Shown here piece after piece: positions 1 through 16,483 of a stretch of DNA of 17,946 nt. The notes below the pieces were generated by a model, which searched no databases, was not told the origin of the DNA, and worked only from the letters and a program-made list of their open reading frames with translations. Every line of letters begins with the position of its first letter. Within the stretch, counting starts at the first letter, position 1. The position numbers and the translations under genes are program-made. Where the stretch lies: assembly GCA_963772455.1 (NCBI GenBank), contig CAVYXJ010000015.1, positions 1 to 17,946 on the forward strand, given 5' to 3'. Source of the DNA: Candidatus Bathyarchaeota archaeon (GTDB lineage Archaea; Thermoproteota; Bathyarchaeia; Bathyarchaeales; Bathycorpusculaceae).

Positions 1-9
1 ACCAATAAG

Positions 10-420
10 TTATGTTTTTAGAAAAATCACATTGTCCAAGCGGCGAAAATGTTCGTCTCCAGTTACTACTGTTCCTTTCAAACTTCTGGCAGTGCAAAGA
101 ACTATTGAATCTGCCAACCCCCAGCCTTTTGCTTCGAGTTTCATTTCCTCACTAATTTCGCCTGCTTCGATTGCGATTTCAAAATCTAAATCCATTATCC
201 TGCTTGTTGCCCGTATAAATTCTAATCTTCTTATTCGTCCTTCTCGTGTTTCATTTCCCAACTCAATATCTTTTCTTAATTTCCGACTGATTTCGGAAAC
301 TACAATCGTAGGTGTGATTGAATAATCACTTTCAATATATCCCTTTGCAGTCTTGCCCATTTCGGAAGCTTTGAAATATTCGATCCATGCATATGTGTCT
401 ATTATGTAGTTAGAACTCAT
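10..420 (-). CDS. vapC: PIN-domain ribonuclease toxin (VapC family), 136 aa
   Basis: PIN motifs YIIDTYAWIEY, VVSEI, LADSIV and VVTGDEHF. The start is placed at the ATG at 420 (MSSNY), which overlaps the upstream antitoxin end, rather than at the ORF-track start of 474. Confidence 0.9.
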   Translation of the reverse strand: MSSNYIIDTYAWIEYFKASEMGKTAKGYIESDYSITPTIVVSEISRKLRKDIELGNETREGRIRRLEFIRATSRIMDLDFEIAIEAGEISEEMKLEAKGWGLADSIVLCTARSLKGTVVTGDEHFRRLDNVIFLKT

Positions 421-610
421 GAAATTCAACTCGGTCTTTTTCAGTAAACGACGTGAGTTTAGGGTTTGAGCCAAACATAGAACAAGGAATCTTTTTTTGT
501 TCGATGAGTAACTTCTTTATTACTTCGTCATGGCTTTTTGCGTTCATTTCCTTTTTAGCTTTGTTTAGCATTTGAAGAGTTTTCTCGTTTACTTGAACTG
601 TTGTCGGCAT
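410..610 (-). CDS. vapB: VapB-type antitoxin (RHH-like N-terminus), 66 aa
   Basis: MPTTVQVNEKTLQMLNKAKKEMNAKSHDEVIKKLL fits a ribbon-helix-helix-like archaeal antitoxin, followed by an SMFG motif. It overlaps the PIN gene by 11 nt. Confidence 0.85.
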   Translation of the reverse strand: MPTTVQVNEKTLQMLNKAKKEMNAKSHDEVIKKLLIEQKKIPCSMFGSNPKLTSFTEKDRVEFHEF

Positions 611-621
611 AATGGCTTCCC

Positions 622-659
622 ATCTAATATATAGTTATAGTTATAGATTTAAAAGTTTC
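622..659 (-). promoter_or_regulatory. Putative BRE/TATA promoter and operator of the vapBC pair
   Basis: The minus strand reads GAAACTTTTAAAT followed by CTATAA-CTATAA-CTATA (+ strand TATAGT x2, TATAGA at 630-647), with an ATCTA...TAGAT inverted repeat, just upstream of the ATG at 610. Confidence 0.55.
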
Positions 660-773
660 GAGTAATGCTTTTTCTCTTAAAATAATTTCATTATCTTAGA
701 TTATGGAGGAGAACTTACGATCCTCTAAGGCAAGTTTTAATGTTTTCAAATCCCTTGCACAAGTTCAGGACCG

Positions 774-1016
774 CCCACAATAGTTTGCCGATGATTCTAA
801 GGCTTAAGTAAAATGGTCAAAGAAATCAAGGTCCAACTTAAACCCCACATCTACCCACACCACACCCACACTATTCAACATGACCGTCATGTTGACTGTG
901 TGGAGCAATCTCTGTTCCCACACTTAAACAGCAGTTAAAAAACAGCCCAAACCAAAAAAGCAAACAAAACCAAAGCCCACAGTGTGGTGTGCAATTGTAT
1001 AGCTACACACCCACAC
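774..1016. repeat. Intergenic cluster of CCCACA direct repeats with perfect palindromes
   Basis: CCCACA occurs at 774, 844, 854, 865, 917, 976 and 1010. CACACCCACAC occurs at 861-871 and 1006-1016. Palindromes are TCAACATGAC-C-GTCATGTTGA (875-895) and CCACA-G-TGTGG (977-987). Confidence 0.8.
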
Positions 1017-1162
1017 AAAGAACAAAAAATGACCATTCGTTAACAAATTCTCTTAAAAAAATGAGTCAGGAAGGGTACAAACCCCACTTTGTTGTCGTCT
1101 TGTTACAATCACATATACTTAAGAAAGCTGGCAACCGCTAATAGATTGTTTAGGTGTAAGTC

Positions 1163-1351
1163 ATGCGCAAAAAAGAACATCGTCACACGGACACATTGGG
1201 TGCCGCGTCATCTCAAGATATACCAGTAAGAGGAGTAGAACCAAGTCAAATTCCTTGTCCAGTTTGCGGGAGACTCTTTAAGACCCATTCGGAAATGGAT
1301 AGGCATAGAGATACAACTCACCACGAAACAAAAGGACACGAGGAAGAATAA
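1163..1351 (+). CDS. Small C2H2-type zinc-finger protein, 62 aa
   Basis: CPVCGRLFKTHSEMDRHRDTTH matches C-x2-C-x3-F-x8-H-x4-H. AGGTG ribosome-binding site lies upstream of the ATG. Confidence 0.8.
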   Translation: MRKKEHRHTDTLGAASSQDIPVRGVEPSQIPCPVCGRLFKTHSEMDRHRDTTHHETKGHEEE

Positions 1352-1542
1352 CTATTCAGTTCAAGCCCAAAAGAATCTGCCCAAACGATTCGTATTATTC
1401 AGAGTAAAAAAAATTGCCATTGGGCAAAATTTGTGTCGTTAATGGTTGTTAGATAACATTCACAAACTCTTATTTTCACTTCTTTTCAAAGAATTTCTTG
1501 GCTCAATAAAACATTAAATTATTTGCGAGTTTGTGGTCCTAG

Positions 1543-2959
1543 TTAACGATTAAACCTTTGCGGAGGCAAACGGAGAACAAAGGTTGTTCCTTTTCCTTCA
1601 TCGCTTTCAAAAGTAACCATTCCACCTAATGATTCAGTCATGCGTTTTACGACGGGTAATCCAAAGCCTTGACCTTTAGATTTTGTAGTGAACATTACTG
1701 TGAACATCTTGCTTTGGACATCTTTTGGAATGCCAACTCCTGTATCCTTAACAGATATGACAGTGTCGTCTGCTTCTTTTTGTGCTTGTATAGTAAGCTT
1801 GCCACCGTTTGGCATTGCTTGTATAGCGTTGGTTACCAAATTGTACATTATTCGATTTATGTAATAAGAGTCAGCATTTATCTTCCTAGCGGCATCGTCC
1901 ACCTTGACGTTGACTTTGATATTCTTTGGCAAGCCATTTTTAGTAAACATTTTTTCAAAAATCAGTTTAAGATCGCTTTCTTCAGCCTTGGGATTTAGAG
2001 GTCTTGAATAGTCTTGAAGATCTTGAACTATTTTGTTTATGTACTCTGTGTTTTTTTCTATTTCTTCTATACTCTCGATAGCATTCTTCTTCTCTTCGCT
2101 GTCCGGAATAGCGGATAACTCAGTTTTAGCTAAATATGCGTCACTAGTTATGGCCTGCAGTGGGTTGCGGATGTCATGTCCAACCATTCCTGCAGTGGCA
2201 CCAATCGCAGCTAATCTTTCTGAATCCTTCAACTTACCGTTAGCAGTCTTAAGGTTAGCAGTCATCTGGTTAAAAGAACGGGATAATTCCCCAATTTCAT
2301 CTTTCCTATTATTTTCAATCTTATAGTTAAGGTCCCCCGAACCTATGACAGCAGTGCCGGCTTGAAGGTCAGATATTGATTTAAGTGTACGCCCAAAAAT
2401 TTGGATATAGGTTGCGACAAGAAATAAACTAAAAATTCCAATTATTCCCAAAATTAATCCGTAATTTATTGAGTTAAGTTGATCTACTTGTATACTAAGC
2501 AATTGAGATAATCTTGTCGAGTCCGCGACAACAGTTTGGCTTTGAATAGACATACGACTCCATGATATTTGAAGTGCCGAAACGGTTTCATGTGAGCTTT
2601 GATTTTGAGCAATAGAAACTATGCTGTCAAATACTGTTTTCATTCGTTGCTCATTAGCCTTAATATTAATTACAAGCGATTGCTGTTCTGAATTATCGAC
2701 GCTTAGGTTTTCAACGTCGTTAGAGAATGAAATGTACCTTGTTTGCCATTGAGTCAAGCTGCTGGTTTCCACGGTAAATTACGTAGTCGCTTGAAAGGTA
2801 GCTTAAATCGTTGGCGCCTTGTGAAATGCGGTCGGCAAGATTTTCCTGTGTTCGGGTTTTACTTACCTGCCCAGAAGTAATTACAAGTGAGGAAGTAATA
2901 ACTATTAAAAATAGGCTAAAGATTATCAGAGTAATAATGAATTGGGTTCTGATTCGCAT
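1543..2959 (-). CDS. Membrane sensor histidine kinase (TM-sensor-TM-HAMP-HisKA-HATPase), split by a one-base frameshift near 2756
   Basis: H-box GHDIRNPL, N-box NLVTNAIQAM, DTGVGI, FTTK and GQGFGL are present, as is HAMP ...KDEIGELSRSFNQM. ORF 2720..2959 supplies the first TM helix. Removing one base joins GNQQL to TQWQTRY, giving 471 aa. Confidence 0.85.
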
Positions 2960-2968
2960 AATATTTGC

Positions 2969-3991
2969 CTACTTGAATATATTTACCGAGTTAGGCTTAA
3001 CTGCAAATAGACCGTCGAGGTAAATGTAATTCAAAAAGTTGGGCAGAACTGTGGAGTTGGTTAAGTTGTTATTTATCAACCATTGCGATTCATCTTGCAT
3101 AGCTAGAAGCATCGATTGGTCAAGTGAAAGAGAGAATTGGTTCTGACTCCATACTTTATCTGTATAAGCATCACTCAGGTTTAGCTGGTTTTTTACAATT
3201 GTTTTTGTCTCAGATATGTGTTTTAACGCAAAATCTTCAGCTTGTAAGAGAGACCTGAGAAATCGAACGACTATTTCAGGATGATTCGTTATCCAATTAT
3301 CGGTGGCAATAGCCTGAGCGTATAGAGGTTGGCTACTCTGAATTGACCAAACTATCGCGTTATTACCCAAACTATCCTTTGCAGATTCTGCATACGGCTG
3401 GGCAGTCGCAACCGCGTCTATAGATCCATCTACTACTGCATTTACCCATTCTATGGGCGTCTTAAGATCGATGAGTTTCACATCTTTAAGACTCATTCCA
3501 TTTAATTCAAGAAACCTGCCCAAATAGAAATGCGCTATAGTTCCAAAAGTAGTCCCAATCGTTTTCCCCTTCAAATCTGAAACTTCACTAATTCCCCGAT
3601 CTTGTCGCCCTACGATATATATGAATTCAGATTTTGCAATAGTGCTAATTGAACGAATTTGGACCCCATTAAGCGCATTTATAGTCAATGGAAACTCTGA
3701 GGTTCCCACAACGAGGTCATCCACACCATTCAACACTCCGCCTAATGCGCCTGATCCAGTACTATACTTATGGGAAGTTACGTTAAGACCGTTTTGACTG
3801 AAGAAATTTTGGTTTTCAGCAACCCAAAAAAGTGTCAGTGATTCAAATGGTGAATAAGCCACGTTAATTGTTTCCATTTTTCCCGCATATGGCTTTTGAG
3901 AATTAAGGTAAATAAATGAACTTAAAACAATGGCAATAATCAAGAAAATAACGGCTAGAACAATGAGAACTCGTTTCTTTTGCAATGCCAT
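2969..3991 (-). CDS. NitT/TauT (SsuA/NMT1-THI5-like) substrate-binding protein with N-terminal membrane anchor
   Basis: Motifs VAENQNFFSQNGLNV, DLKGKTIGTTFGT, GSIDAVATAQPY and HPEIVVRFLRSL. The likely start is the ATG at 3991 (MALQKK), preceded by GAGGGGG. Confidence 0.88.
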   Translation of the reverse strand: MALQKKRVLIVLAVIFLIIAIVLSSFIYLNSQKPYAGKMETINVAYSPFESLTLFWVAENQNFFSQNGLNVTSHKYSTGSGALGGVLNGVDDLVVGTSEFPLTINALNGVQIRSISTIAKSEFIYIVGRQDRGISEVSDLKGKTIGTTFGTIAHFYLGRFLELNGMSLKDVKLIDLKTPIEWVNAVVDGSIDAVATAQPYAESAKDSLGNNAIVWSIQSSQPLYAQAIATDNWITNHPEIVVRFLRSLLQAEDFALKHISETKTIVKNQLNLSDAYTDKVWSQNQFSLSLDQSMLLAMQDESQWLINNNLTNSTVLPNFLNYIYLDGLFAVKPNSVNIFK

Positions 3992-4205
3992 GTTACTTTC
4001 CCCCTCAGAAGACAAAACTTTACATCAATTTGAAAGATGTGGGCTTATATAACTATCGAAACTAACCACAAACTTGCTTACTTCATATTTTGATGAGATT
4101 AAGAATTTGGTTAATGTCGATCCTTTTTTCCATCAGCACCAACTAAAAAAAGTAAAGCATGATTTTAAGATACTAATAAGTCAGAATTAACTCTCCATAT
4201 ATTAG

Positions 4206-5489
4206 GTGTCAATGTTGGTTGTTGAAAAAGCTATGCATTTTTATTCTTGTCAATTGGCGACATCTAAATCTGTACAACAGCACAAACTCCGTAAGCGCAT
4301 AGCTTGGTTGTCAAATAAAGAGGGAAAAGGTAGAGAGTTCATCTCACTTTTCATACCTCCAAAGACTCGAATAGATGGGGTAATTGCCAACCTGAAGAAG
4401 GAATCTGATTTAACCATCAGAGAATCTGAGAGTGTTAAAGAACGCTTACAAAGTGCCTTTAAAGCTGTAATCCTTAATCTAAAACAGATTAAGGAAATTC
4501 CGGAAAACGGGTTAGCTCTATTTGCAGGATTTTTTCCAGTTAACGAATCTGAAAAAGAAGTCTTAAGCCTGGAAGAGATAGTTCCACCTGAACCGTTTAA
4601 CACCTATTTTTACTCAATTGGTGACCATTTTGACTTAATGCCACTTAGAGAAATCCTAAGAGACCAAAAAAACGTTGGAATACTCGCTTTAGATTCTAAA
4701 CAGGCTAGTTTTGGATTATTAAATGATGAACACATTGAAGTCTTAGAGAATATTTCTTCTGGAATTTCCGGAAAATCTGGAAAAGGCGGGTCGAGCCAAA
4801 GAAGATATGAAAGAGAACGCGACTCCTCAGTCGTAAACTTTTTTCACAGAATTGCGGAGCATGCAAACAAACAATTTATCAAGAAAAAAGTTAACATTTT
4901 GATAATAGGGGGACCTGGTCAAACTAAGAATGATTTTTTGAAGGGTGAATATCTTCATTATGAACTGAATAATATGCTTCTAAACATAGTTGACACTCAA
5001 TCCGCTGGCAAAGAAGCGCTAAAAGAGATTCTAAATAAATCATCAGAACTTCTTAAGAATATGTGTGGACCTGAAGAGAAAAGAATCGTTCAGAATCTAA
5101 TGATAGAACTGAATAAACAAAGTGGTTTAGCTACTTATGGCTTAGATTCAGTATTAGAAGCGCTTAGAAATGGTGAAGTGCAAATTGCTATAGTGACAGA
5201 TAGCACCGATATGGTTCTAAATGTTGCTGTATGCAAAAAATGTGGATTTTCAAAAACAAAGATCGCAAATAAAAAAACCCATGCCATAAAGGAAATGATT
5301 GAGAGGCCCTGTGAAAAATGCAATGGGGTTTCATATGAGGTTGGAGAAAAAGACATTGTTGATGTTTTAGAAGATATAGCTTCTAAAACTGATGCAAGCG
5401 TTGAGGTAATTTCATCCATTTCTGATGAAAAAGCATCACTCACAGCGCTGGGTGGCTTTGCAGCTCTTTTAAGATACAAATCAGGATAA
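4206..5489 (+). CDS. Divergent paralog of archaeal peptide chain release factor aRF1 (eRF1 domains 1-3 plus zinc ribbon), with GGS in place of GGQ
   Basis: EFISLFIPP, PENGLALFAG, VPPEP, GKSGKGGSSQRRYERER, LIIGGPGQTKNDF, LATYGLDSVLEAL, CKKC...CEKC and LGGFAALLRY. The start is uncertain (4206, 4233 or TTG 4254). Confidence 0.9.
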   Translation: MSMLVVEKAMHFYSCQLATSKSVQQHKLRKRIAWLSNKEGKGREFISLFIPPKTRIDGVIANLKKESDLTIRESESVKERLQSAFKAVILNLKQIKEIPENGLALFAGFFPVNESEKEVLSLEEIVPPEPFNTYFYSIGDHFDLMPLREILRDQKNVGILALDSKQASFGLLNDEHIEVLENISSGISGKSGKGGSSQRRYERERDSSVVNFFHRIAEHANKQFIKKKVNILIIGGPGQTKNDFLKGEYLHYELNNMLLNIVDTQSAGKEALKEILNKSSELLKNMCGPEEKRIVQNLMIELNKQSGLATYGLDSVLEALRNGEVQIAIVTDSTDMVLNVAVCKKCGFSKTKIANKKTHAIKEMIERPCEKCNGVSYEVGEKDIVDVLEDIASKTDASVEVISSISDEKASLTALGGFAALLRYKSG

Positions 5490-5788
5490 ACACCTTTTTT
5501 CAACAATTAAATTCAACAGATATAATTTTCAAAAGTTTTGAATCGTAAAAATATCTTTGTAAAAACTAAAAAACATAAGTTGCCATTCCGTTTTCAAAGC
5601 CGATGATTTTCTAATAACAATTGTTTCTTGAACTGCTTTGAATACTTGCATGATTTCATGCTTGTTTCAACCTATAATTTTAAATGAGATGAAATCATTC
5701 TTTTTGATAAAAAATTTACTTTCAAATCGTCAAAAAACTGCAACTCTTGACACGGAGATCAGAACGCTGAATGAAAGGAAAAGCCCGC

Positions 5789-6487
5789 ATGAATGATGAA
5801 GTAAAATTATTCTCAATAGGGGTAATGATCTTTATCCTTTTATTGGGACTTGCAGCTTATTTTTCTACAGAAGGCGTATCAGCTAAACAGATTCGCGTAG
5901 CTTGCGTGGGCGATAGTATTACTGAGGGAAGCGGTTATCCCTTCCAATTACATTTGATGCTTGGTTCAAACTACGTAGTTGGCAATTTTGGGGTAAGCGG
6001 ATCCACTGTTTCACTTGATTCTACGAAACCTTACATGAATGAAAGCAAATTCAAAGCAGCTTTGGATTTTAACCCTGACATTGTTGTAATTATGTTAGGA
6101 ACTAATGATGCAAACACAGAAGTCACTCCAAATGAAAATGACGTTGATACTGATTATTCAAAACTGGTTTCGGCATTCCAACAACTTGAAGGTAAACAAC
6201 TAATTTGGATCGCAAAGTCACCGCCGATCTTTCCCAACAATTCAAATTACAGCAACACAATTCTCACCACGAATATACTTCCACAAATTGACAATTTAGC
6301 TGATGAAATGAATTTACCTACAGTTGATATGTACAATATTCTCAGCGACCACTCGGAATATTTTGCTGACGGCATACATCCAACTCGTGATGGCGCCGCT
6401 TTGATTGCCACTAATGTTTACAATGCAATAACTTTGCCCGATGGGTCACCAGATATGTCTTTCTTTGATTCTGGTTACTCTGATTGA
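5789..6487 (+). CDS. Membrane-anchored SGNH/GDSL hydrolase (acetylesterase-like)
   Basis: Blocks GDSITEG, NFGVSG, MLGTND and DGIHP are present, with an N-terminal hydrophobic helix. The start could alternatively be 5771. Confidence 0.9.
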   Translation: MNDEVKLFSIGVMIFILLLGLAAYFSTEGVSAKQIRVACVGDSITEGSGYPFQLHLMLGSNYVVGNFGVSGSTVSLDSTKPYMNESKFKAALDFNPDIVVIMLGTNDANTEVTPNENDVDTDYSKLVSAFQQLEGKQLIWIAKSPPIFPNNSNYSNTILTTNILPQIDNLADEMNLPTVDMYNILSDHSEYFADGIHPTRDGAALIATNVYNAITLPDGSPDMSFFDSGYSD

Positions 6488-6544
6488 TATTGGTTGGAAA
6501 TTACTCTCTATTGCGGATATTACGCAAACTGTTTATAGTAAATC

Positions 6545-7645
6545 GTGAGTAAAGAAAGATACAGGTTATTGGGATCCAAAGTGAACCTGAAGAATGAAGA
6601 ATTAGTTCTTCCTGTAGATCTCATCCGTACTGTGGCCATAATTTTAGTTATCTTGCTTCATGCCTCAACACAGTCTTACTCGGAGGTTGATTTGATGTCG
6701 CCACAAGGAGTACAAATCTGGTGGGCATCAAATATCTATGATTCTCTAGCTCGAGTATGCATCCCTTTGTTTGTGATGTTGGCAGGTGCACTTTTGCTTC
6801 AACCCAGCAAAGTAGATGAACCACTAAAAATCTTCTTCAAAAAAAGGCTATATCGAATCGGACTGCCTTTCATCTTTTGGGGGGCAATATATTTTGCTTG
6901 GCGATTCTTCGTAAATGGCGAAGCATTAACACCTGACTCTTTTATTCAAGGACTGTTAAATGGACCTTACTATCAATTTTGGTTTCTCTACCTAATAATA
7001 GGATTATATCTCGTGACACCAATCCTGCGAGTACTAATAAAACATGCAGACCAAAAAATAATCAAATACTTAATTTCCATTTGGTTTTTAGGCACAGCTA
7101 TAATTCCAATATTAACATTGTTCGGATCTTTCAATTTGAATGCCAATGTCTTCCTTTTGACAGGATGGTTAGGCTATTTTGTTTTAGGCGCATACCTAAT
7201 AAAGGTACATTTGAGATCTTCAATTCTAATCACCGTTTTTGCAGCCGCTTTTCTCTGGACAATAATTGGCACGTACCTAATAATTGGCAATTTAGGTGAA
7301 ATATTTAATCAGTTTTTCTTATCAGGTTACAGCTTCAACATCATACTGGGTTCAACTGCATTATTCTTGCTCATGGCTTCTATCCCAGCCCCTAAAATAG
7401 AAAAAAGATTTCCAAATGGCAATCGAGTACTTAGGGTAATAAGTCAAAACACTTTGCCGATATTTCTATTCCATCCAATTGTACTGGAAACCTTACAGAA
7501 AGGTTACTTAGGATTTGCCATAAATATAACATCAATTAACCCAATTATAGAAATCCCACTTATCACTGCCCTCACTCTGCTCATCTGCCTCGCAATAATT
7601 GTTCCTTTAAAGAAAATACCTTATGTAAAAAGAATCATTGGTTGA
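6545..7645 (+). CDS. Acyltransferase family 3 (OafA/WecH-like) integral membrane O-acyltransferase
   Basis: DLIRTVAIILVILLH, CIPLFVMLAGALL, FFKKRLYRIGLPF, QFWFLY and IFLFHPI, with about 10 hydrophobic helices. The start could be GTG 6581. Confidence 0.9.
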   Translation: MSKERYRLLGSKVNLKNEELVLPVDLIRTVAIILVILLHASTQSYSEVDLMSPQGVQIWWASNIYDSLARVCIPLFVMLAGALLLQPSKVDEPLKIFFKKRLYRIGLPFIFWGAIYFAWRFFVNGEALTPDSFIQGLLNGPYYQFWFLYLIIGLYLVTPILRVLIKHADQKIIKYLISIWFLGTAIIPILTLFGSFNLNANVFLLTGWLGYFVLGAYLIKVHLRSSILITVFAAAFLWTIIGTYLIIGNLGEIFNQFFLSGYSFNIILGSTALFLLMASIPAPKIEKRFPNGNRVLRVISQNTLPIFLFHPIVLETLQKGYLGFAINITSINPIIEIPLITALTLLICLAIIVPLKKIPYVKRIIG

Positions 7646-7748
7646 AATAAAAAATTTTCAAGTAAAGTTCTACAATAAATTTCTGTTACTTTTCTAGCAA
7701 ACTATTTCTTGAACAAAGAGGGGCTAATCTAAGGAAAAAAGCTGTACC

Positions 7749-9224
7749 TTGAAAATAATTAAAGAACAAATCAAGTTGCAAACAAACGCATTTCGCGAAA
7801 AATTTGAAAGAAATAACTTGAAAACAATCTTAGCTGATAATTATCCTCTCTTAAGCATACTAATTGGCTACTTATTTGTAGCATTAACAATAGGACCGTT
7901 CTACAATAGTGATACTGCAATCGAATACAACGCTGTATCGGGAGTGTTGAAATATGGTTTGCCAAAACTGGATGACGGCTACATCATTAATCAACCCCCA
8001 TTGGGATTCTATTCTCAAGCCTTTTTCTTGAATATTTTTGGTTCTTCAATAAGTAATGGCACGTTCTTGGTCACCTTGTTTGGGCTTGGATGCATCGTCT
8101 TAGTATATGGAATTGCCAATACCGTGTACAATAAGACTACAGCTTTTTTCGCAGCTACCCTTTTTGCTTTTAGCCCATGGCATCTAATATTGTCTAGGAC
8201 TTTCCTAATTGATGTTCAATGTCTCTTCTTCAGTTTGTTTTCGCTATTTCTTGGAATATTTGCCGTCCGCAGAGATTCAATCAAGTTATTTGTAGGTTCA
8301 GGGATCATTTTCGCAATGGCTTTTAGCACAAAATTATATGCTGTGTTTATTCTTATCCCAATTTTAGCTTTCTTTTTCTTCTTTAGATCTGAAAAAATAA
8401 AACAAAAATTAATTTGGTTGGGTGCATTTTCCGCGCCAACATTTTTGTTTTCCTTTTTGTGGTATCAAACAATTGCGAAAGTTGGAATGGGCGCTATTAT
8501 TTTTCATACTGATTTTGCAGTTCATGAATCTAGCGGTATAGTTCCTTCTTACTTTTTTGTGAGCAATTTCCTTACTAGCTATGGTTTGGGCTGGTTATTT
8601 GTGGATGCAGCAATTCTGTCACTATTCCTATGTTTCACCCAAAAACGCTTATTTCGCAGATTTCTTGCGTTTGATATAATCAGCTTGTTAACTATAATTT
8701 GCGTAATAAGTGTGAACACTTTTTTGGGAGCAACCTTGAAACTTAATTCCCCTTATCTGACCGCGATAAAATATGATTATCAATCATTGCCTTTCTTTGC
8801 TTTCTTAGCGGGATCATTGATAACAAAAAGCATTTCTCTTATTAATTTAAGCAAGCTAAAGAAAAAAGTAACTCGTATAACCTATGTTTTTGCCGCTTCA
8901 ATTGGATTCATATTAGTGCCTCTTTCAATAGGAATCAACATGAGTTATGTGAATCTGTTTTCCACTTGGACCTATTTACTTTTCAAAGCAGACTCAAACC
9001 TTAAAGTAGGGTATTCATTTTTTAGCGATACTCCACTTGCTTTAAACAACGTTTTGTTTAATTTTCAATATTTAGGGTATGCATTAATGTTATCAGGAAT
9101 CGTATGGTTAAGCAGACATAAAATATCTTCATTACTAAAAACATTACATTTCAAAATCCATTTCAGTAAAATTTTATACAAAAACAAGTTACGAAATGAA
9201 GTTCAAAAAAAAATAAGTATTTAA
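7749..9224 (+). CDS. GT-C fold membrane glycosyltransferase (ArnT/PMT_2-like, GT39/GT83-related)
   Basis: An N-terminal DTAIEY acidic motif, NQPPLGFY, FSPWHLILSRTFLID and AFSTKLY, in a polytopic membrane protein. Confidence 0.8.
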   Translation: MKIIKEQIKLQTNAFREKFERNNLKTILADNYPLLSILIGYLFVALTIGPFYNSDTAIEYNAVSGVLKYGLPKLDDGYIINQPPLGFYSQAFFLNIFGSSISNGTFLVTLFGLGCIVLVYGIANTVYNKTTAFFAATLFAFSPWHLILSRTFLIDVQCLFFSLFSLFLGIFAVRRDSIKLFVGSGIIFAMAFSTKLYAVFILIPILAFFFFFRSEKIKQKLIWLGAFSAPTFLFSFLWYQTIAKVGMGAIIFHTDFAVHESSGIVPSYFFVSNFLTSYGLGWLFVDAAILSLFLCFTQKRLFRRFLAFDIISLLTIICVISVNTFLGATLKLNSPYLTAIKYDYQSLPFFAFLAGSLITKSISLINLSKLKKKVTRITYVFAASIGFILVPLSIGINMSYVNLFSTWTYLLFKADSNLKVGYSFFSDTPLALNNVLFNFQYLGYALMLSGIVWLSRHKISSLLKTLHFKIHFSKILYKNKLRNEVQKKISI

Positions 9225-9226
9225 GA

Positions 9227-9265
9227 GAAGAAGAAGAGTGAAAAATTTGCACTTCTTCTTCCTTT
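9227..9265 (+). terminator. Imperfect hairpin after the glycosyltransferase gene, possible terminator
   Basis: GAAGAAGAAGAGTG...CACTTCTTCTTC followed by CTTT, immediately after the stop at 9224. Confidence 0.35.
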
Positions 9266-9504
9266 AACAATCTTCTACCATTAACAGTTGCTTTGTATGA
9301 AGCCGAAATTTATGACCCTTTAATTGTTGAAAAACTCGAAAAGGCTTGATTCAACATGTTAGAATGGGGACAAATTACGATGCATCGGATTTTATGTATG
9401 CAAAGATCGCTCATGGCTTATCATCCCCCAAGTTAAGCCGTATGGCTATTTCTGGTAAAAACAAGTCTTATGTATTTGAGAGGCATACAAGAAAGTGATG
9501 AATT

Positions 9505-9876
9505 ATGCAAAACGACACAGAAACAAAAATTAAGCAAGACCTTTTGGCTGAAATTCAAAACTTAGAACAAAATTACATAGTAATTCAGGGTTTTATCGCT
9601 GGAAAAGAATATGAGGTTACAGTCATCGGATCAAGCCTTCAATCATTCAAAGACAGCTTAAGTAGAGCTAGCGCATTTGTCCTTGCATTATACAACTTTA
9701 AAGGCAAAAGAGTCAACATTCCATGGGAACCGCTTTTCACAAACTTGGATTATGCACTCGCGACTTTGTCAACTACTCCAAAGAAAGAAGCTGTCCAGGT
9801 AATCTTATCCATGGCTAAAGAACAGATTGAACAGGTATTATCATATTTCTCAGCGCTAAAAGAATCACTCAAATAA
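9505..9876 (+). CDS. Hypothetical alpha-helical protein, 123 aa
   Basis: Open frame with amphipathic helical composition and a GTGA ribosome-binding-like site upstream. No family recognised. Confidence 0.75.
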   Translation: MQNDTETKIKQDLLAEIQNLEQNYIVIQGFIAGKEYEVTVIGSSLQSFKDSLSRASAFVLALYNFKGKRVNIPWEPLFTNLDYALATLSTTPKKEAVQVILSMAKEQIEQVLSYFSALKESLK

Positions 9877-10055
9877 AATTTGAAACATAGCAATGCATAG
9901 AATTAATGCCTTTCTTTTTGATTTTTATGGTTTCTTTTTCTGTGGCTCAAATAGAATAGGTTTGCAAATTTCCTGTTGGATTCGAAAGCGGAGACTAGCG
10001 GTATTCAAAGGATGAAGAGTTAAGTATAACCCAAATCAAACATTTGTGAAGAAAG

Positions 10056-10415
10056 ATGGCATACTTACGTAACGAGAAAGAAAACCTCGAAGTATCATAT
10101 CCGCTGAAACAGATATGGGCTGCAATACCAGAAACCATCAAGATTTTGGAGTGGACGATAGAAGAGCAAGACGACGCAACCCACAAGGCTAAAATCAAAA
10201 CAAAGGGTGGTTTTTTAGCATACAATTCAATGCTTTACCTTGAAGCATCCGCAGTAGATGAGAACACTACTAGAATGTCTATTTATGCGGAAACACCAGT
10301 AACCACAATAACCTCAATTATTGATTTTGGCAGAACAAGAGACCGCATAGGTCAATTTATTGAAACATTAGGCAAGATAATGGAAAAGAAAGATAATCAA
10401 AAGAAAACAAGCTAA
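10056..10415 (+). CDS. Hypothetical protein, 119 aa (alpha/beta, C-terminal DFGRTRDRI motif)
   Basis: Protein-like composition, collinear with its neighbours. The DFG-x4-RI ending recalls DUF1499-like proteins (weak). Confidence 0.75.
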   Translation: MAYLRNEKENLEVSYPLKQIWAAIPETIKILEWTIEEQDDATHKAKIKTKGGFLAYNSMLYLEASAVDENTTRMSIYAETPVTTITSIIDFGRTRDRIGQFIETLGKIMEKKDNQKKTS

Positions 10416-10457
10416 TTAAGCAAAAAAACTAATAACAATAGTAAATGTTGATTACTT

Positions 10458-11423
10458 ATGATACGCATTCTCAACTTGGGCGACAATTCCGAAAGAACCG
10501 TAACTGATGAAGAACTAAAAGGATTAAACCTCACGAGTCAATGGCTGGAACTTGTTGACCCAACAGAAAACGAGTTGCGTTCAGTATCCGATTCAACACA
10601 GTTTCCTGTAACTTTTTTGAGATTACCCACAACTGAAGGATATGTTAATTTACGATTAGAACAAGATTACGGAATCATTAATTTCCTAGTTATGCAGGAC
10701 ATTGTATCAACCAAAAAAACACACCCCGTTGTCCTGGCTTTTTCGAAGAATTTGCTCGTAACCGTCGCAACCAAGGAAACTCAGAAAATCATTGACGTTG
10801 CTAAAGAACGAATGAGCAAAGCCAAAATAGACCCCCCATCTCACGTTATTTATTTTATCCTTGATGAAATAGTTTCCTCTCATTATATTCAAATTGAAAA
10901 ACTAGAACACCTCACCGAAAAAATGGAAGAAGAAGTCGTTGAGAAAACCTCCGCTGACACACTAAAGAAAATTTTCAAACTTAAATCAAACATGGTTAGC
11001 TTTAACAAACTTCTTTGGTATGAACGAGGGCTAATTTTCAATATTAGAAAATTCGAGGAAATCCACTTGTCTCCAAAAGCCCGAGCCTTGTTTGACACTA
11101 CACATGAGGATTTGACTAGGCAAATAGACATAGTTGAAACTTATAGAGAAATACTTTCAGACGCTATAAATGTGCATTTATCAGCAATTTCAAACAAAAT
11201 TAATTTCTCAATAAAAGCTTTAACAGTCGTCATATTCTACTTAACAATTGTAACTACAATTACTTCTTTTCCAAACACAGTCGCCACCTTCTTTGGTATT
11301 GCGCAGTTTGGAAACACAAACATCCTAATAATTACCACAGCATTACTGCTATCGATTGTTTTGCCTCTCATTTGGCTTTGGAAAAAGAGTTGGCTTACCT
11401 CAAAGAGACTCGATTATCAATAA
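10458..11423 (+). CDS. CorA/ZntB-family divalent cation transporter-like protein with non-canonical signature (GIA instead of GMN)
   Basis: WLELVDPTENEL, LLVTV, YFILDEIV, IFKLKSNM, REILSDAINVHLSAISNKIN-x2-IKALT, two C-terminal TM helices and a KKSWL tail. Confidence 0.85.
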   Translation: MIRILNLGDNSERTVTDEELKGLNLTSQWLELVDPTENELRSVSDSTQFPVTFLRLPTTEGYVNLRLEQDYGIINFLVMQDIVSTKKTHPVVLAFSKNLLVTVATKETQKIIDVAKERMSKAKIDPPSHVIYFILDEIVSSHYIQIEKLEHLTEKMEEEVVEKTSADTLKKIFKLKSNMVSFNKLLWYERGLIFNIRKFEEIHLSPKARALFDTTHEDLTRQIDIVETYREILSDAINVHLSAISNKINFSIKALTVVIFYLTIVTTITSFPNTVATFFGIAQFGNTNILIITTALLLSIVLPLIWLWKKSWLTSKRLDYQ

Positions 11424-11543
11424 CTCCAGAAGATTTGTAATGAACCACGCACAATTTCAACATCCAAACAGCTCTCCAACTTTAGAACCGCTGGAAGTTA
11501 TTTTGATTACTTCGGTTAAACTGAATAATACATCGGGAATTAT

Positions 11544-11969
11544 ATGAGCAAAAAACAACCACCTATAATTATTTACAAAGGTAGAAGCTTGGGCATCGTC
11601 ATTTTGGTTGTTTCACAGTTAATTATCGGGGCTATCCACGCCTTCTTCGGGTTACTTCTTCTTGTATACGAAAACTTTTCGTTCCTTCCAACAACAGCAG
11701 TTTATGACATTTACACTTTTGTCTTTGGGTTGTTGGCTTTGGTTTTCGCAGTTCTTATTTGGGAAGGCAAAAAGATTGGGTGGATTGGCACAATTGCAGT
11801 TTCGTTATTTGTGATTGCTGCAGATTCTTTGACGCTTCTGGATTTGCCAAGTATTCCAGGGATTCCAAAGTTTGCGGGATTTACTGAAATAGCATATAGT
11901 GTTTTGGTTGTTGGTTATTTGCTTCAACCCAGAATAAGAAAAAAATATTTTGCATCCAAGAAAAATTAA
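11544..11969 (+). CDS. Hypothetical 4-TM membrane protein, 141 aa
   Basis: Four hydrophobic segments with RSLGIVIL, GKKIGW and YLLQPRIRKKYF, a pattern typical of small archaeal membrane proteins. Confidence 0.8.
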   Translation: MSKKQPPIIIYKGRSLGIVILVVSQLIIGAIHAFFGLLLLVYENFSFLPTTAVYDIYTFVFGLLALVFAVLIWEGKKIGWIGTIAVSLFVIAADSLTLLDLPSIPGIPKFAGFTEIAYSVLVVGYLLQPRIRKKYFASKKN

Positions 11970-11998
11970 AGCTATAAAGATATTAGAAAAACTCTAAT

Positions 11999-12664
11999 TT
12001 ATCTCAGGGTTGCATTGTTGGGGTAACCTCTGCTTTCCCAGAAACCCAGATAATCAGGGTTATCTGTTAATTCGATGTTGGTAATCCATTTCGCCCATTT
12101 GTAGCCATATTGGCTTTCAGCGACGAGTTCGAATGGGAAGCCGCGTTCAGGTGGAAGAGTCAAACCATTCATCTTGTAAGCAATAATGATGTTTTTGTCT
12201 GTGATGTAATCGATCGGAAGCTCAGTTGAGTAGCCATCGTACGCGTAAAAGATCACTGCCACCGCACTCGAGTTGACGCCTGCTTCTTTTAGCAAATCGT
12301 TTACAAGAAATCCTTCCCAAAGAATCTTAGCCGACCAACCTTCAACACAATAAAGGGTTACGACTTTTTCATATTTCTGGAATTTGCTAAGTATCTCGTC
12401 GTAAGTGTAATTCACTGTTTTGTTAACCAATCCAGTTATTGACAAGCGATAAGTGGAGATGTCGACTTGTTGGGGTCCCTTAATCGAGTTTTCCCTAAAG
12501 TCTCCGATTGAAGAAAGGTTTTCGCCTTGGTAATCGCGGATTTCTCCGGGATACAACCTTTTAGGCTGATTCACTCCATAGTAGACGGCTAAGAAAACAA
12601 GCACTAACAACATTATTGTTAAAGAAACCGCAATTAATTTTTGATAGCGATTTTTTTTCTCCAT
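11999..12664 (-). CDS. Membrane-anchored molybdopterin-dependent oxidoreductase (sulfite oxidase/MsrP-like family)
   Basis: YRLSITGLV, TLYCVEGW (Mo-ligand Cys), DGYSTELP, MNGLTLPPERGFP, GYKWAKWIT and GFWESRGY. Confidence 0.9.
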   Translation of the reverse strand: MEKKNRYQKLIAVSLTIMLLVLVFLAVYYGVNQPKRLYPGEIRDYQGENLSSIGDFRENSIKGPQQVDISTYRLSITGLVNKTVNYTYDEILSKFQKYEKVVTLYCVEGWSAKILWEGFLVNDLLKEAGVNSSAVAVIFYAYDGYSTELPIDYITDKNIIIAYKMNGLTLPPERGFPFELVAESQYGYKWAKWITNIELTDNPDYLGFWESRGYPNNATLR

Positions 12665-12799
12665 TCTTATTCAACTCAAAAAAGTAGGAACCCTTTAATC
12701 CACTGAATGGTTGTACATCATACTTAAAAAACCCAATCCTTATTCAGAGCATTTACTCACCAAAAAATCAAAACCTGATTCGCAAGATAACAAATAATT

Positions 12800-13207
12800 T
12801 TAAACTTTTTTTTGAAGAGTACTCAAATACGTAGGCAATCCTTCGATGCATTGAATTTCTCTACCTGCAAGTGCGCGCAGAGCACGCCAAAACTTCAGGT
12901 TAACCAAGATTTTTTTCCATTCCAGACTCTCCTGGAGATGCTTAGTACCTTCTTGTCCTCGTCGATCAAAATCAAGCAATAGAATAACTTCTCTTGAACA
13001 TAGCCTTTGGATTTCTACAGTTGCTTCAAGAAAAGATTTACCTCCAGTCTTCACCATTAAAATCGGGCCTTTAGCACCCAATTCTTGAAGAGCGTCAGCA
13101 TCTTTCTTGCCTTCAACAATAAGGGGAGTACCTTCCAATGATTTTTCTATCAACTGTGTTATGATTTGCTCTATTTTCTCTACTTTTTCTTTACGATGTG
13201 TAGACAA
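12800..13207 (-). CDS. Stand-alone Toprim-domain protein (small primase/RNase M5-like)
   Basis: LIVEGKKD and LLLDFDRRG Toprim motifs. It starts 5 nt after the tyrS stop. Confidence 0.88.
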   Translation of the reverse strand: MSTHRKEKVEKIEQIITQLIEKSLEGTPLIVEGKKDADALQELGAKGPILMVKTGGKSFLEATVEIQRLCSREVILLLDFDRRGQEGTKHLQESLEWKKILVNLKFWRALRALAGREIQCIEGLPTYLSTLQKKV

Positions 13208-13212
13208 AACAG

Positions 13213-14302
13213 TTACCGGGTAATCTTTGCGTTGCGAACAGTCTCTAAGCAGCCTTTTGCTTCTTTGTTATTTTCAAAGTAACGTCTAACTGGTTCAAGG
13301 ATACTTGCAAGTTCAGTTGCAACACCATTTTTAAGATCCATCGGATGCAATTTGCCATCTGAATAGGCTACCTCAAGTTCTTGGAAACTCTGAAACTCAG
13401 CATTTCCGCCGAATTTAGCTGGACGCTCTATTCTGAAGACTGGTTTTTCCCTAAAAATAATGTATTTGCAAATGTCCATTATAGGATTGTACTTTACAAT
13501 TCTTTCTGGACAGAACGCTTTACTCATCTTTTGCTTGATTTCCTCTGGTGAATCATAAATGAAGACGCAGGTGTCTGGTTTGCTCTTAGACATTTTTGCT
13601 GAAGCAACTGCTTCTCTTTCTTGTCCTTCGGGAATTGGCCAAATTCCAGGTTTAGCTAAGCCCTGTAACAAATGATGATGCACGCAAACGGGTTTCCAGC
13701 AACCGATTTTCTCTCCGATTTCTCTTCCAACCATGTTTGCTTTGCGTTGATCCATGCCCAGTTGGCAAATTTTGACTTTCATATGGAAGATATCCGCCAC
13801 CTGCATAGGTGTATAGAGATAGTCAGAAACGTAGTGGGCTTCACCCTCTTTTCTACCGGCGATTTCAAGAGTACGCGTTGTTCGAGCTAAAGTCAGGTTC
13901 TTGGCGATTATCACTGTTTTTGCCCAATAGTCAATGTCTTTGTAGAGTTCATCCGAATAAATGAATTCGACTTTATCTCCTGGCACCCCAAGGGCGAGCC
14001 AGGAATATCTAAAGAGGTCTGCGGCTTTGCGGATAAGGGTTAAGTCGCCACCAAGTTTGTTGTTTAACCATGCATGCCAAGTTGCCAAGAACGCTTTGAA
14101 GTGAATTCCAGCTTCCGCAAAGTCTTTCATTTTATAGGCGCAGATAACGCCTGTTCCTAAATGTGCCTAGACCAGAAGGTTCCCAACCGTTATAGGCGAT
14201 GGGATGTTCTTCAATTTCAAGAAGCGCTCTCAAATCCTCTGTAGTTACTAATTCTTCAGTTGGTGGTCTACAAATTAAATCAATTTTCTTTTCAATGTCC
14301 AA
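13213..14302 (-). CDS. tyrS: Tyrosyl-tRNA synthetase (archaeal type), 362 aa after correcting a one-base frameshift at 14166-14167
   Basis: A TTG start at 14302 (GGTG upstream) gives MDIEKKIDLICRPPTEELVT...AYNGWEPSGL. The +1 frame continues AHLGTGVICAYKMKDF (HIGH-like motif), then YTPMQVADIF, GMDQRKAN and KMSKS. Confidence 0.93.
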
Positions 14303-14537
14303 ATTGGCACCAAACCTTAGTGGTTATAGGTTTAATGCATGTGATGAACTTAAAAATTCGCTTTCTACTCTAAATTCGCTAGCTGAATTCTGCCTCTTTA
14401 AGATAAAACAACAAAAAAACATTTTTTTAAAGAAAAAAGTTTGCTATGGGCTCTAGGTAAATATAATTGTAATAGAATTCCCAAAATAATTCTTAATTAG
14501 CGAGAGCATTCCATAACTAGAAGAGGCTATGTGACAG

Positions 14538-15032
14538 GTGAACAATATGGGAAAGAACGATGTGAATAAGGATGAGTCGCCTTCACAGCTTATAGACGCG
14601 CGAATTCAGGAACTAGGCGATTGGCGCGGAGAAACGTTAGCCAAAATGCGCCAGCTTATCAAGGAGGCGGATCCAGAGGTAGTTGAAGAGTGGAAATGGG
14701 TGAAACCTACAAATCCTGGTACTCCAGTCTGGTCCCACAACGGCGGCATTTGCACAGGAGAGACCTACAAAAATTCGGTAAAACTCACATTCTTCAAGGG
14801 TGCTTCGCTAGAGGACCCCTCTCACCTGTTCAACCAACCTGGGACCGTCAGGCGCGCCATCGACATCCATGAAGGCGAGAAGATTGACGAGGAGGCCTTC
14901 AAGATCCTCATTCGTACCTCTGTGAAACTGAACGTTTCCAAATGCAAACTGGAAAAACTACAATCCGAAAGTCGAATAAAAACCTCAATTGAGGAAGAAG
15001 TGAAACTGATTAGAGAGGATAGAGAACGCTGA
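14538..15032 (+). CDS. DUF1801 (YdhG-like) domain fused to a VapB-antitoxin-like C-terminal tail
   Basis: SPSQLIDARIQELGDWRGETL, EADPEVVEEWKW, PVWSHNGGICTGETYK and RRAIDIHEG are typical of DUF1801. The tail IEEEVKLIREDRER is typical of archaeal antitoxin ends. The start may be ATG 14547. Confidence 0.8.
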   Translation: MNNMGKNDVNKDESPSQLIDARIQELGDWRGETLAKMRQLIKEADPEVVEEWKWVKPTNPGTPVWSHNGGICTGETYKNSVKLTFFKGASLEDPSHLFNQPGTVRRAIDIHEGEKIDEEAFKILIRTSVKLNVSKCKLEKLQSESRIKTSIEEEVKLIREDRER

Positions 15033-15421
15033 TAGTTGCCGACAGTATTTTCATAGTTGAAGGTCTCCTTAAGAATAGAGAACTACTTGCAGATGAACAG
15101 ATTGTTGCTCCCGAGTTAGTTGCTTACGAAGTTACAAACGCCATTTGGAAACATGAACATCTTTTGAAAGATTTAGAAAACGGTAAACAGTACTTATCAA
15201 TTTTCTACGGTTTAATGGAAGCTGGAAAAATAAAGACACTAATTCCAAACGAAGAGTTGATGCAGGAATCATATTCAATCGCAAAAAGGCAAGGAATAAC
15301 ATTATACGACGCAGTTTTTGTTTCTCTGGCAATTAAATTAGGATTGACCTTAAAAAGTTACGACAAAGTTCAAATTCGAGCCCTAAAATCTGAGAATAAC
15401 CAATCTTACGATTCTCAGTGA
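15029..15421 (+). CDS. vapC: PIN-domain toxin (VapC family), 130 aa, probable CTG start overlapping the upstream TGA
   Basis: The frame extends upstream of the ORF-track start at 15164: LIVADSIFIVEGLL...APELVAYEVTNAIWK...TLYDAVFVSLA...LKSYDK. An in-frame TAG at 15020-15022 bounds it, and AGAGGA lies upstream. Confidence 0.85.
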   Translation: MIVADSIFIVEGLLKNRELLADEQIVAPELVAYEVTNAIWKHEHLLKDLENGKQYLSIFYGLMEAGKIKTLIPNEELMQESYSIAKRQGITLYDAVFVSLAIKLGLTLKSYDKVQIRALKSENNQSYDSQ

Positions 15422-15515
15422 AAAAGGTTTCAGCCTTGGCAGCGAAATAACCGGTTAAAGAAGAAAAGATTGGATGGTTAAATTAAGATTTAACCAAAAA
15501 AACTTTGCCGGGAGT

Positions 15516-16431: not shown

Positions 16432-16483
16432 GTCAAGCTAAAAAAGAGTTAGCAAGAGTAAACCTGCACCAGCCATATTTTCT

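Follow-up and report, generated by a model that had tools for sequence, protein, structure and literature searches.

All class I release factors share a GGQ tripeptide, their textbook invariant, and the NIKS and YxCxxxF motifs define the way in which archaea and eukaryotes read stop codons. Peptide release without a stop codon in the A site is known from ArfB and ICT1, which have an unrelated fold of the bacterial release factor type and keep the Gln of GGQ strictly; any likeness between them and the proteins described here is a functional analogy only. Here we describe a gene in a contig of 17,946 nt (CAVYXJ010000015.1; 'the window' refers to this whole stretch) from the Candidatus Bathyarchaeota archaeon assembly GCA_963772455.1. 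On its forward strand the window encodes a full-length homologue of aRF1, the release factor found in archaea, in which the stop-codon-reading motifs are replaced and the catalytic loop reads GGSSQ. The gene is a member of a family with at least 148 distinct sequences, whose protein probably does a new job on the ribosome.

Several relatives of aRF1 that depart from normal termination have been described. According to the available text of Burroughs and Aravind (PMC6514570), inactive aeRF-1 relatives, namely Dom34 and most baeRF-1 proteins, have degenerate catalytic loops of unconstrained length, and loop length varies little in predicted hydrolases, which retain a Gln. Among the latter, the same text gives aVLRF-1 and acVLRF-1 a GGxSQ loop motif in loops that are longer than that of aRF1, describes aVLRF-1 as lacking the C-terminal pelota-type domain and carrying an N-terminal coiled coil, and describes acVLRF-1 as lacking the N domain. 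Balon/Rv2629, as presented in the parts of PMC10901736 available, has the aeRF1 fold without NIKS or GGQ, occupies the A site independently of mRNA and contacts EF-Tu; the identity of Balon to aeRF1 is about 10%, its GGQ loop is replaced by a lasso loop and a bL27 trap, and it carries in addition an HP motif and an EF-Tu-binding beta-hairpin. Finally, two aRF1 copies were reported in 4.3% of sampled archaeal genomes (n = 81) by a 2025 survey, with more copies in larger genomes, and in the text available such second copies are described as lineage-specific duplications (PMC12626013).

The window gene compares most closely with canonical aRF1. It is a single uninterrupted frame of 427 codons with a GTG start and zero internal stops, as seen in both the open reading frame (ORF) listing and the translation. 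The aRF1 equivalog model TIGR03676 matches it at 329.7 bits (cut-off 234.7) over model positions 2-402 of 403, and the Pfam domains eRF1_1 (25.8 bits, cut-off 23.8), eRF1_2 (113.4 bits) and eRF1_3 (57.3 bits) all score above their cut-offs. The best solved relative is the archaeal aRF1 4af1 (E 4e-47), with human eRF1 entries next. In the 4af1 alignment S196 falls on the Gln of GGQ and I-R-E-S on N-I-K-S; in the human eRF1 alignment G-R-E falls on G-T-S and Y-S-I-G-D-H-F on Y-L-C-D-N-K-F. The codons GGC GGG TCG at 4785-4793 encode G194-G195-S196 inside KGGSSQRRYER. A first-pass annotation, made from the letters of the window, had reported exactly this picture of an aRF1 homologue with three domains, a zinc ribbon, the replaced motifs and these three codons, and Pfam, TIGR03676, the alignments and the DNA bear it out in every detail.

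We compared 177 family rows (148 distinct sequences, some genes having been fetched twice) residue by residue with 39 canonical aRF1s of the same class. With canonical aRF1 (TIGR03676), that of Nitrososphaeria in particular, the family shares its three-domain architecture, length, zinc-ribbon insert, GGxAAxLRY motif, GG dipeptide and loop length. The zinc-ribbon cysteines C343, C346, C369 and C372 are present in 177/177 family and 39/39 canonical rows, and at the C-terminus the family retains the GGxAAxLRY motif of canonical aRF1. In e/aRF1 and pelota this motif has been implicated in the binding of EF1A-family GTPases, as described in the accessible text of PMC2613156. Unlike canonical aRF1, family members lack NIKS, the Thr of GTx and the Cys of YxCxxxF, can dispense with the Gln of GGQ, hold Q198 and K193 invariant where the canonical protein has Ala, and carry an added, conserved N-terminal extension of about 15 residues. 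Their identity to canonical aRF1 is 30-43%, and their gene is accessory and mobile where canonical aRF1 is universal and single-copy.

The decoding motifs are lost almost throughout the family. NIKS occurs in 0/177 rows, against (N/K)IKS in 39/39 canonical ones; the equivalent loop is one residue shorter than the canonical loop and takes 109 distinct strings with changes in length, and at loop positions 70-72 nonsynonymous change runs at 0.76-1.1 of the neutral expectation. The position of the Thr of GT(S/E), T in 39/39 canonical rows, holds M in 91 rows, K in 39, R in 31, L in 6, I in 4, T in 3, V in 2 and N in 1. Likewise, the Cys of YxCxxxF, conserved in 39/39 canonical rows, is replaced by V (148 rows), I (19), A (6), L (2) or M (2). 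The N domain as a whole is strongly diverged, with eRF1_1 scoring 25.8 bits in the window copy vs 82.5 in the canonical aRF1 of the same genome. Judged from these residues, the family protein does not read stop codons. The first-pass annotation had claimed that both stop-codon reading and GGQ were lost: the former stands, given the absence of NIKS from all 177 rows, and the latter is true of the window copy and of about 60% of the family (89/148) but not of the family as a whole.

Some contacts of the reading head do survive, as might be expected of a terminator whose specificity has shifted to another A-site triplet, or of a competitor of aRF1 at stop codons that promotes read-through. E66 (158/177), Y136 (153/177) and F142 (175/177), which we take to be the equivalents of the stop-codon contacts E55, Y125 and F131 of eRF1, are largely kept, and K73 (127/177) and S74 (154/177) of NIKS are present in most members. 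A reader of defined codons should conserve its loops, however, and since the reading loops are the most variable parts of the protein, with insertions, deletions and near-neutral rates, they count against this explanation. The window copy moreover has E in place of the NIKS Lys and its genome has no pyrrolysine system, so that we regard changed specificity or competition as very improbable. A link to pyrrolysine was considered and dropped, PylS reaching 23 bits in the genome against a cut-off of 178.

The loop that would face the peptidyl-transferase centre is the best conserved part of the protein. Its consensus, K-G-G-x-S-Q-R-R-Y-E-R, varies at x (residue 196) only: K193, G194, G195, S197, Q198, R199, R200, Y201, E202 and R205 are invariant in 177/177 rows, and every one of the 177 family and 39 canonical rows has a loop length of 17. 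Of all regions measured, loop residues 186-207 have the lowest ratio of nonsynonymous to synonymous substitution rates (dN/dS), at 0.087, and eRF1_2 scores 113.4 bits on the window copy vs 119 on canonical aRF1. The first-pass suggestion that the Gln of GG-S-S-Q matters gains support from the invariance of Q198 and from GGxSQ being the loop motif of aVLRF-1 and acVLRF-1.

Residue x itself is S in 74 of the 148 distinct sequences, Q in 59, E in 7, M in 4, W in 3 and A in 1. Gln stands at x on all deep family branches of the LG+G4 tree of 91 rows, with at least four changes between Gln and non-Gln and seven state changes in total. The Gln at x is ancestral and has given way to S, E, A, M or W on at least four occasions, and the idea that GGS might define a clade had to be given up. 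Seven near-identical copies (dS 0.13-0.29) have E, Q, A, E, M, S and Q at x, one of 2/493 columns with five residues among them. Faster-than-neutral change at x over the whole tree was looked for and not seen (14 nonsynonymous and 11 synonymous changes by parsimony, a weak test because synonymous sites are saturated); codon x ranks 142 of 425 by nonsynonymous changes in the same whole-tree parsimony. Ser at x is always encoded by TCA or TCG, two substitutions from CAA/CAG. TAG/TAA was considered as a hub of the changes at x and dropped: Ser is always TCR, but E, A and M misfit a stop-codon hub.

Departures from GGQ were also met outside the family. One gene (L071 = G015:C11:12031-13251) is canonical otherwise (527.8 bits, NIKS, YRCDSR) and has the loop GGM; it is the sole aRF1 match in an 88%-complete genome, and its GGM may be a real variant or a sequencing error. 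A metagenome representative of 404 aa (P0141) combines NIKS and YRCDQMF with the loop GGW, another sporadic loss of Gln in a canonical-looking aRF1. Several long aRF1 relatives lack a contiguous GG.S..R string, and some of them are among the closest canonical relatives (41-43% identity). In P0123, P0126, P0131, P0144 and many others, of 540-1450 aa, the query matches in two stretches with a break at residue 196; from this pattern they look like aRF1 proteins whose GGQ loop is the exact site of an intein insertion.

Conservation within the family is good in each of the three domains, and selection has remained purifying throughout. By the Nei-Gojobori method (site counts being made by parsimony on a saturated tree), the window copy and its nearest copy, on contig C5 of the same assembly, differ by dN 0.043 and dS 0.217 (dN/dS 0.198; similarly diverged neighbouring genes 0-0.245), and family pairs range from 0.12 to 0.42, in keeping with the purifying selection that the first-pass annotation had proposed to look for. 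The counting method puts dN/dS at 0.35 in the N, 0.21 in the M and 0.29 in the C domain. Median dN/dS is 0.182 between pairs that both have Gln at x (n=10), 0.191 between pairs in which neither has (n=74) and 0.214 between mixed pairs (n=59), and the M domain alone behaves alike. The Gln has been lost without relaxation of selection. What has been kept under the strictest selection is the peptidyl-transferase-centre loop and the GTPase-binding end.

A decaying duplicate or functionless gene is scarcely credible on this evidence. In its favour, dN/dS in the family (about 0.2-0.3 overall) is several times that of canonical aRF1, namely about four times the value of 0.045 obtained from one unsaturated pair, and a few copies elsewhere look truncated or contain internal stops (e.g. 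G208, G470, G468, G356 and G072). Yet the frame is intact in nearly all of the 84 matches in the order sample described below, the 148 distinct sequences are strongly conserved in all three domains, purifying selection is seen in 143/143 pairs, promoter-like and Shine-Dalgarno-like elements are conserved, and the gene has been retained through repeated transfers. The first-pass annotation had held that closest homologues with GGQ, together with relaxed selection on this copy, would speak for decay. Its nearest homologues (70-91% identity) also have GGS; more distant family members keep GGQ, and selection is no looser in the Gln-less lineages.

The gene did not arise in the lineage that now carries it. 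The family is monophyletic with a support of 100 in four trees, one by FastTree (local SH-like support) and three scored by the Shimodaira-Hasegawa-like approximate likelihood ratio test (SH-aLRT; LG+G4 with 91 rows, LG+G4 with 101 rows and LG+C20+F+G4 with 46 rows), and sits on a long stem (0.53-0.70). Its nearest canonical relatives are records titled Nitrososphaerales, Thaumarchaeota or Nitrososphaeria, not the aRF1 of its own order. When 25 such sequences were added, the family became nested inside Nitrososphaeria aRF1 (SH-aLRT 100), as sister to one Nitrososphaeria subgroup with a support of 93 (LG+G4) or 96 (mixture model). A tree that unites the family and its own class's canonical aRF1s was rejected by the approximately unbiased (AU) test, with a log-likelihood lower by 74.0 (p 0.0125; this group was named after the tree had been seen). 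At 80 loci of the Nitrososphaeria relatives, NIKS is combined with GGQSARR in 73 and with GGQSQRR in 4, and the D-D-H-F of YxCDDHF (YQCDDHF) is common to Nitrososphaeria aRF1 and the family. Because the family nests inside Nitrososphaeria aRF1, its gene is, as judged from these trees, a xenologue from Nitrososphaeria that was subsequently remodelled and not a local duplicate. The term 'paralog' used in the first-pass annotation, if it is to mean a copy made within the lineage, is accordingly at odds with the trees and the AU test.

Second aRF1 copies such as Methanosarcina aRF1-2 are likewise extra aRF1-like genes beside a working one. By their description as lineage-specific duplications they are set apart from the present family, which is a xenologue, has lost its decoding motifs and was recently transferred between genera. 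In the full-text literature searched we found no description of the present family, and the two-copy list of the 2025 survey (PMC12626013, Table S9) may include some of these genomes. The public label of the family proteins, 'peptide chain release factor aRF-1' or 'subunit 1', probably misstates what they do.

Out of 8000 candidates scored in a search of 5.8 billion proteins, 771 matched at E <= 1e-10. Of these 771, the best 120 are 61-91% identical to the window protein, and the NCBI names among these 120 include four entries for 'Candidatus Bathyarchaeia archaeon' and one Zixibacteria bin. On clustering at 50% the family is essentially one cluster; the next matches are canonical NIKS/GGQ aRF1s at 36-43% identity. 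Distribution was counted in samples of species-representative genomes from the class (151), the order (401) and the phylum (401) of the window. In the class sample canonical aRF1 was found in 137 genomes and a second, low-scoring aRF1 in 3. In the order sample the family is present in 76/401 genomes (E <= 1e-90), eight of which have two matches; the carriers comprise 53/88 species of the window's genus, 70/247 of its family, 4/60 and 1/25 in two other families and 0/68 in nine further families. In the phylum sample it was found in 6/401 genomes (E <= 1e-110), all from the window's own family, and the genomes searched yielded no family member outside one order of Bathyarchaeia-like archaea. The family gene is thus an accessory gene with a patchy distribution.

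Within this order the gene is still moving. All that seven copies from five genera and two families have in common is 1.34-1.6 kb at 89-94% identity, beyond which their flanks are unrelated; the shared unit is made up of the gene with about 70-110 nt of upstream and 8-136 nt of downstream sequence. Canonical aRF1 has, in five of the genomes concerned, a DNA identity of 62.5-80.5% with synonymous sites saturated in 9/10 pairs, and the xenologues of the same five genomes are 91.9-94.5% identical in DNA with dS of 0.14-0.20. In one of the genomes both genes sit on a single contig of 2.35 Mb, so that binning cannot be the cause there. The gene still moves between genera as a single-gene unit of about 1.4 kb that includes its own upstream region. 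An A+T-rich box and AGGTG stand at fixed distances in the upstream stretch of most family members; a AAACYRATAAATYA-like box was read by eye at the same distance in most of 34 family upstream regions, and the box of the window copy lies within the stretch of about 100 nt that travels with the gene. No terminal repeats or att-like sites were seen by eye in the alignment of the ends of the shared 1.4-kb unit. At one locus (L116) a family gene lies directly behind a tRNA-Leu (CAG) gene at 6889-6976, and at a related one (L095) a tRNA-like 3' end that was not called by ARAGORN occupies the same place upstream of the gene; the tRNA-Leu site may be an integration site.

This mobility invites the explanation that the family is a conflict-driven mobile decoy or guard against an agent that attacks termination or the ribosome, for instance a viral or toxin protein directed at the GGQ loop of aRF1, with x as the contested site. 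The patchy distribution, with 53/88 species of one genus and sporadic carriers elsewhere, the recent single-gene transfer between genera into unrelated flanks and the five different residues at x in seven near-identical copies all fit such a role, and several release-factor paralogues have been argued to arise in ribosome-targeting conflicts (Burroughs and Aravind, PMC6514570, available text). However, the 5027 PADLOC defence models gave 0 matches, no family member was found on viral contigs (which contained 11 distant matches at 24-40% identity), the 25 commonest families of 150 flanking ORFs include no integrase, transposase or defence gene, and over the whole tree x does not outpace neutral change. 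We therefore consider a decoy or guard unlikely.

The genome from which the window derives already possesses the standard factors. The assembly has 2.45 Mb in 24 contigs (92% complete, 3.4% contamination), of which the window is the entire contig C15. A separate canonical GGQ/NIKS aRF1 and a pelota, for which the first-pass annotation had asked, are both present: the former at G000:C7:290610-291836(-) (509.7 bits; NIKS, YRCDSRF and GGQSARRYER), the latter on contig C12 (214.6 bits). The pelota match, G000:C12:62715-63780(-), is split into an N-terminal frame of 53 codons and a frame of 349 codons with one TGA between them, which may reflect a frameshift, a gene that is split or an error of assembly. 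The same contig encodes a short pelota-like protein with M and C domains only (G000:C12:43706-44206(-); L010:1495-2235, 246 aa), matched by TIGR00111 at 41 bits (model positions 138-349) and by eRF1_3 at 28 bits. The genome has one aEF1A and no dedicated EF1A-like GTPase, all other matches being weak and far below the family cut-off.

The second copy of the odd aRF1 gene in this assembly, on contig C5, encodes a protein with 91% aa identity to the window copy. The whole window (1-17946) is collinear with G000:C5:35022-49852 at 92-95% nt identity, and the shared block, of 14 kb, includes a gene for tyrosyl-tRNA synthetase (window 13213-14130(-), NF006330 338 bits). Owing to this collinearity, which takes in the synthetase gene, a co-binned sister strain is the likeliest origin of contig C15, more likely than a true second copy. 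Upstream of the window aRF1-like gene, a stretch with a histidine kinase and an NMT1-like binding protein is rearranged and only about 75% identical to C5.

What the new job of the family protein might be is best answered, at a probability of roughly 0.42, by a codon-independent, aEF1A-delivered rescue release factor for stalled or non-stop ribosomes that acts via its GGxSQ loop, a reading based on sequence comparison. As the trees show, a Nitrososphaeria-type aRF1 entered one Bathyarchaeia-like order by horizontal transfer. On the family stem, NIKS, the Thr of GTS and the Cys of YxCxxxF were lost, with near-neutral drift thereafter, and the M-domain loop was fixed as K-G-G-x-S-Q-R-R-Y-E-R, followed by repeated replacement of the original Gln at x; the order of events fits a hand-over, with GGQSA in the donors, GGQSQ fixed on the stem and the first Gln lost several times afterwards. 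The protein retains its C-terminal motif for GTPase binding, and on this ground aEF1A is its predicted carrier to the ribosomal A site, where it might bind irrespective of the codon. The GG loop would then enter the peptidyl-transferase centre and hydrolyse peptidyl-tRNA, with Gln198 of GGxSQ, the loop backbone or both doing the work of the canonical GGQ Gln. The gene might be kept as a dispensable stress or conflict gene, a functional analogue of ArfB/ICT1 and of the VLRF-1 hydrolases. Measured by the loop yardstick of Burroughs and Aravind, the frozen loop makes the family look like a hydrolase with a working Gln two residues along. Nor do canonical factors strictly require the Gln side chain for hydrolysis: direct participation of GGQ in catalysis is, according to the text available of PMC1976462, not supported by mutational studies.

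The resemblance to aVLRF-1 and acVLRF-1 extends to the GGxSQ motif and to the predicted role as a specialised peptidyl-tRNA hydrolase independent of normal termination. Unlike those proteins, the family keeps all three aRF1 domains and a loop of canonical length. NF041024 reaches 29.4 bits on the window protein against a cut-off of 125. Membership in the VLRF group had also been considered on account of a match to Pfam acVLRF1 (PF18859) at 37.5 bits, and was rejected as this match is generic, canonical aRF1 itself scoring 40. Given the scores and the different domains, we interpret the shared GGxSQ as convergence, not membership.

Several points weigh against a rescue release factor. The loop is no longer than that of aRF1, where VLRF-1 loops are longer, and the ester bond may be out of reach for a Gln placed two residues on. 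W, M or E at x would be odd beside an attacking water and would fit a non-hydrolytic occupant equally, and the invariant loop could be kept only for rRNA binding. All rescue hydrolases known to us keep their Gln strictly. GGQSQ is also found in canonical aRF1s (4/80 Nitrososphaeria-type loci, 1/39 canonical Bathyarchaeia rows and several metagenome representatives), and Q198 therefore need not be catalytic. Finally, no conserved neighbour, regulator or operon partner that would point to rescue was found, the commonest cluster occurring in 8/42 loci and no Pfam family in more than 5/150 flanking ORFs.

The main rival is a non-hydrolytic, codon-independent occupant of the A site and catalytic centre, either a hibernation or protection factor like Balon/Rv2629 or a pelota-like adaptor for ABCE1-driven splitting, which we hold to be possible although doubtful. 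Such a protein would bind ribosomes that are vacant or stalled and place its GG loop at the peptidyl-transferase centre with no release of the peptide. Balon/Rv2629 is a precedent for an aeRF1 fold without NIKS and, as in the window copy, without the Gln of GGQ, and codon-free A-site binding and contact with an EF1A-type GTPase would be expected of the family protein too. Repeated loss of Gln to S, E, A, M and W is what might be expected if hydrolysis were unselected or selected against. The Rv2629 family model NF052289 scores 41 bits on the window protein vs 18.5 on canonical aRF1, and ion-transport and compatible-solute genes in the neighbourhood hint at a stress context: a P-type ATPase, ClC, CorA and a mannosylglycerate-synthase-like glycosyltransferase with a HAD phosphatase were met in some loci. 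However, pelota, Balon and most baeRF-1 proteins have lost or remodelled the whole loop, while here ten residues and the length are invariant and form the most constrained part of the protein. In addition, 59/148 sequences (about 40% of the family) keep GGQ and would be expected to release peptides if the loop reaches the centre. The score of 41 bits lies far under the NF052289 cut-off of 320, each of the stress-gene neighbours is found in few loci (at most 8/42), and the genome already has a pelota.

Pelota/Dom34 belongs to the same superfamily, acts independently of the codon, is delivered by an EF1A-type GTPase and, according to the accessible text of PMC2613156, shares the C-terminal motif. 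It has an Sm-like N domain and no GGQ loop, whereas the N domain of the family matches eRF1_1 and its loop is intact; TIGR00111 (pelota) reaches 65.3 bits on the window protein vs a cut-off of 177.65, over the M and C domains only.

Returning to the rescue release factor, a bolder version of it may be entertained, tentatively and with considerable doubt. The catalytic Gln of a horizontally acquired aRF1 might have migrated two residues downstream (from GGQSA through GGQSQ to GGxSQ), freeing the Gln of GGQ to vary, and the family could then represent the first archaeal stand-alone codon-independent rescue release factor, spreading as a promoter-plus-gene unit, possibly against agents that stall or attack ribosomes.

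The features of the window copy are collected in Table 1. Its true start may lie two or three codons inside GTG 4206, at ATG 4212 or TTG 4215, since AGGTG at 4204-4208 is conserved in the family and these two codons follow behind it.

Table 1. Features of the NIKS-less aRF1 gene and its upstream region, in positions of the window; residue numbers count from GTG 4206.
Feature	Position	Strand	Basis or remark
Gene of the NIKS-less aRF1 xenologue	4206-5489	+	427 codons from GTG 4206, stop codon included; TIGR03676 329.7 bits
A+T-rich box ACTAATAAGT, candidate archaeal TATA/B recognition element (BRE) promoter element	4172-4181	+	~25-35 nt upstream of AGGTG; promoter function putative
AGGTG, Shine-Dalgarno-like element or carrier of the GTG start	4204-4208	+	GGTG at the same offset in most family members
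N domain, residues 25-150, strongly diverged	4278-4655	+	homologous to the stop-codon-reading domain; eRF1_1 25.8 bits; dN/dS 0.35
G-R-E, residues 42-44, in place of G-T-S / G-T-E	4329-4337	+	eRF1 alignment
T-I-R-E-S, residues 70-74, in place of (S)NIKS	4413-4427	+	alignment
Y-S-I-G-D-H-F, residues 136-142, in place of YxCxxxF	4611-4631	+	alignment
M domain, residues 151-287, best-kept domain	4656-5066	+	eRF1_2 113.4 bits; dN/dS 0.21
Tip of the peptidyl-transferase-centre loop, K193-G-G-S196-S-Q198-R-R	4782-4805	+	S196 = TCG 4791-4793, replaces the Gln of GGQ
C domain, residues 288-427	5067-5486	+	eRF1_3 57.3 bits
Inserted zinc ribbon, C343...C372	5232-5321	+	four invariant Cys
C-terminal L-G-G-F-A-A-L-L-R-Y motif	5448-5477	+	matches canonical GGxAAxLRY

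Other genes in the vicinity of family members deserve brief mention. At the edge of the window a PIN-domain protein is encoded at 10-474(-), and a small stand-alone Toprim-domain protein at 12800-13207(-) adjoins the tyrosyl-tRNA synthetase gene. At three related loci (L086, L095 and L111) a gene for a beta-CASP/RMMBL RNA-specific metallo-beta-lactamase lies one to three genes from the xenologue, a nearness that might reflect either local synteny or some functional tie to RNA cleavage.

Taken as a whole, the family amounts to a natural and well-populated experiment, with at least 148 selected sequences in which decoding has been abandoned, the Gln of GGQ has been replaced many times and the GGxSQ loop has been frozen. 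It makes testable what the Gln side chain contributes, whether a neighbouring Gln can substitute for it and whether archaea possess, in addition to pelota, a codon-independent factor for release or for hibernation. The family is also, as its phylogeny indicates, a clear case of a core translation-factor gene that was captured from another class and now circulates as an accessory gene.

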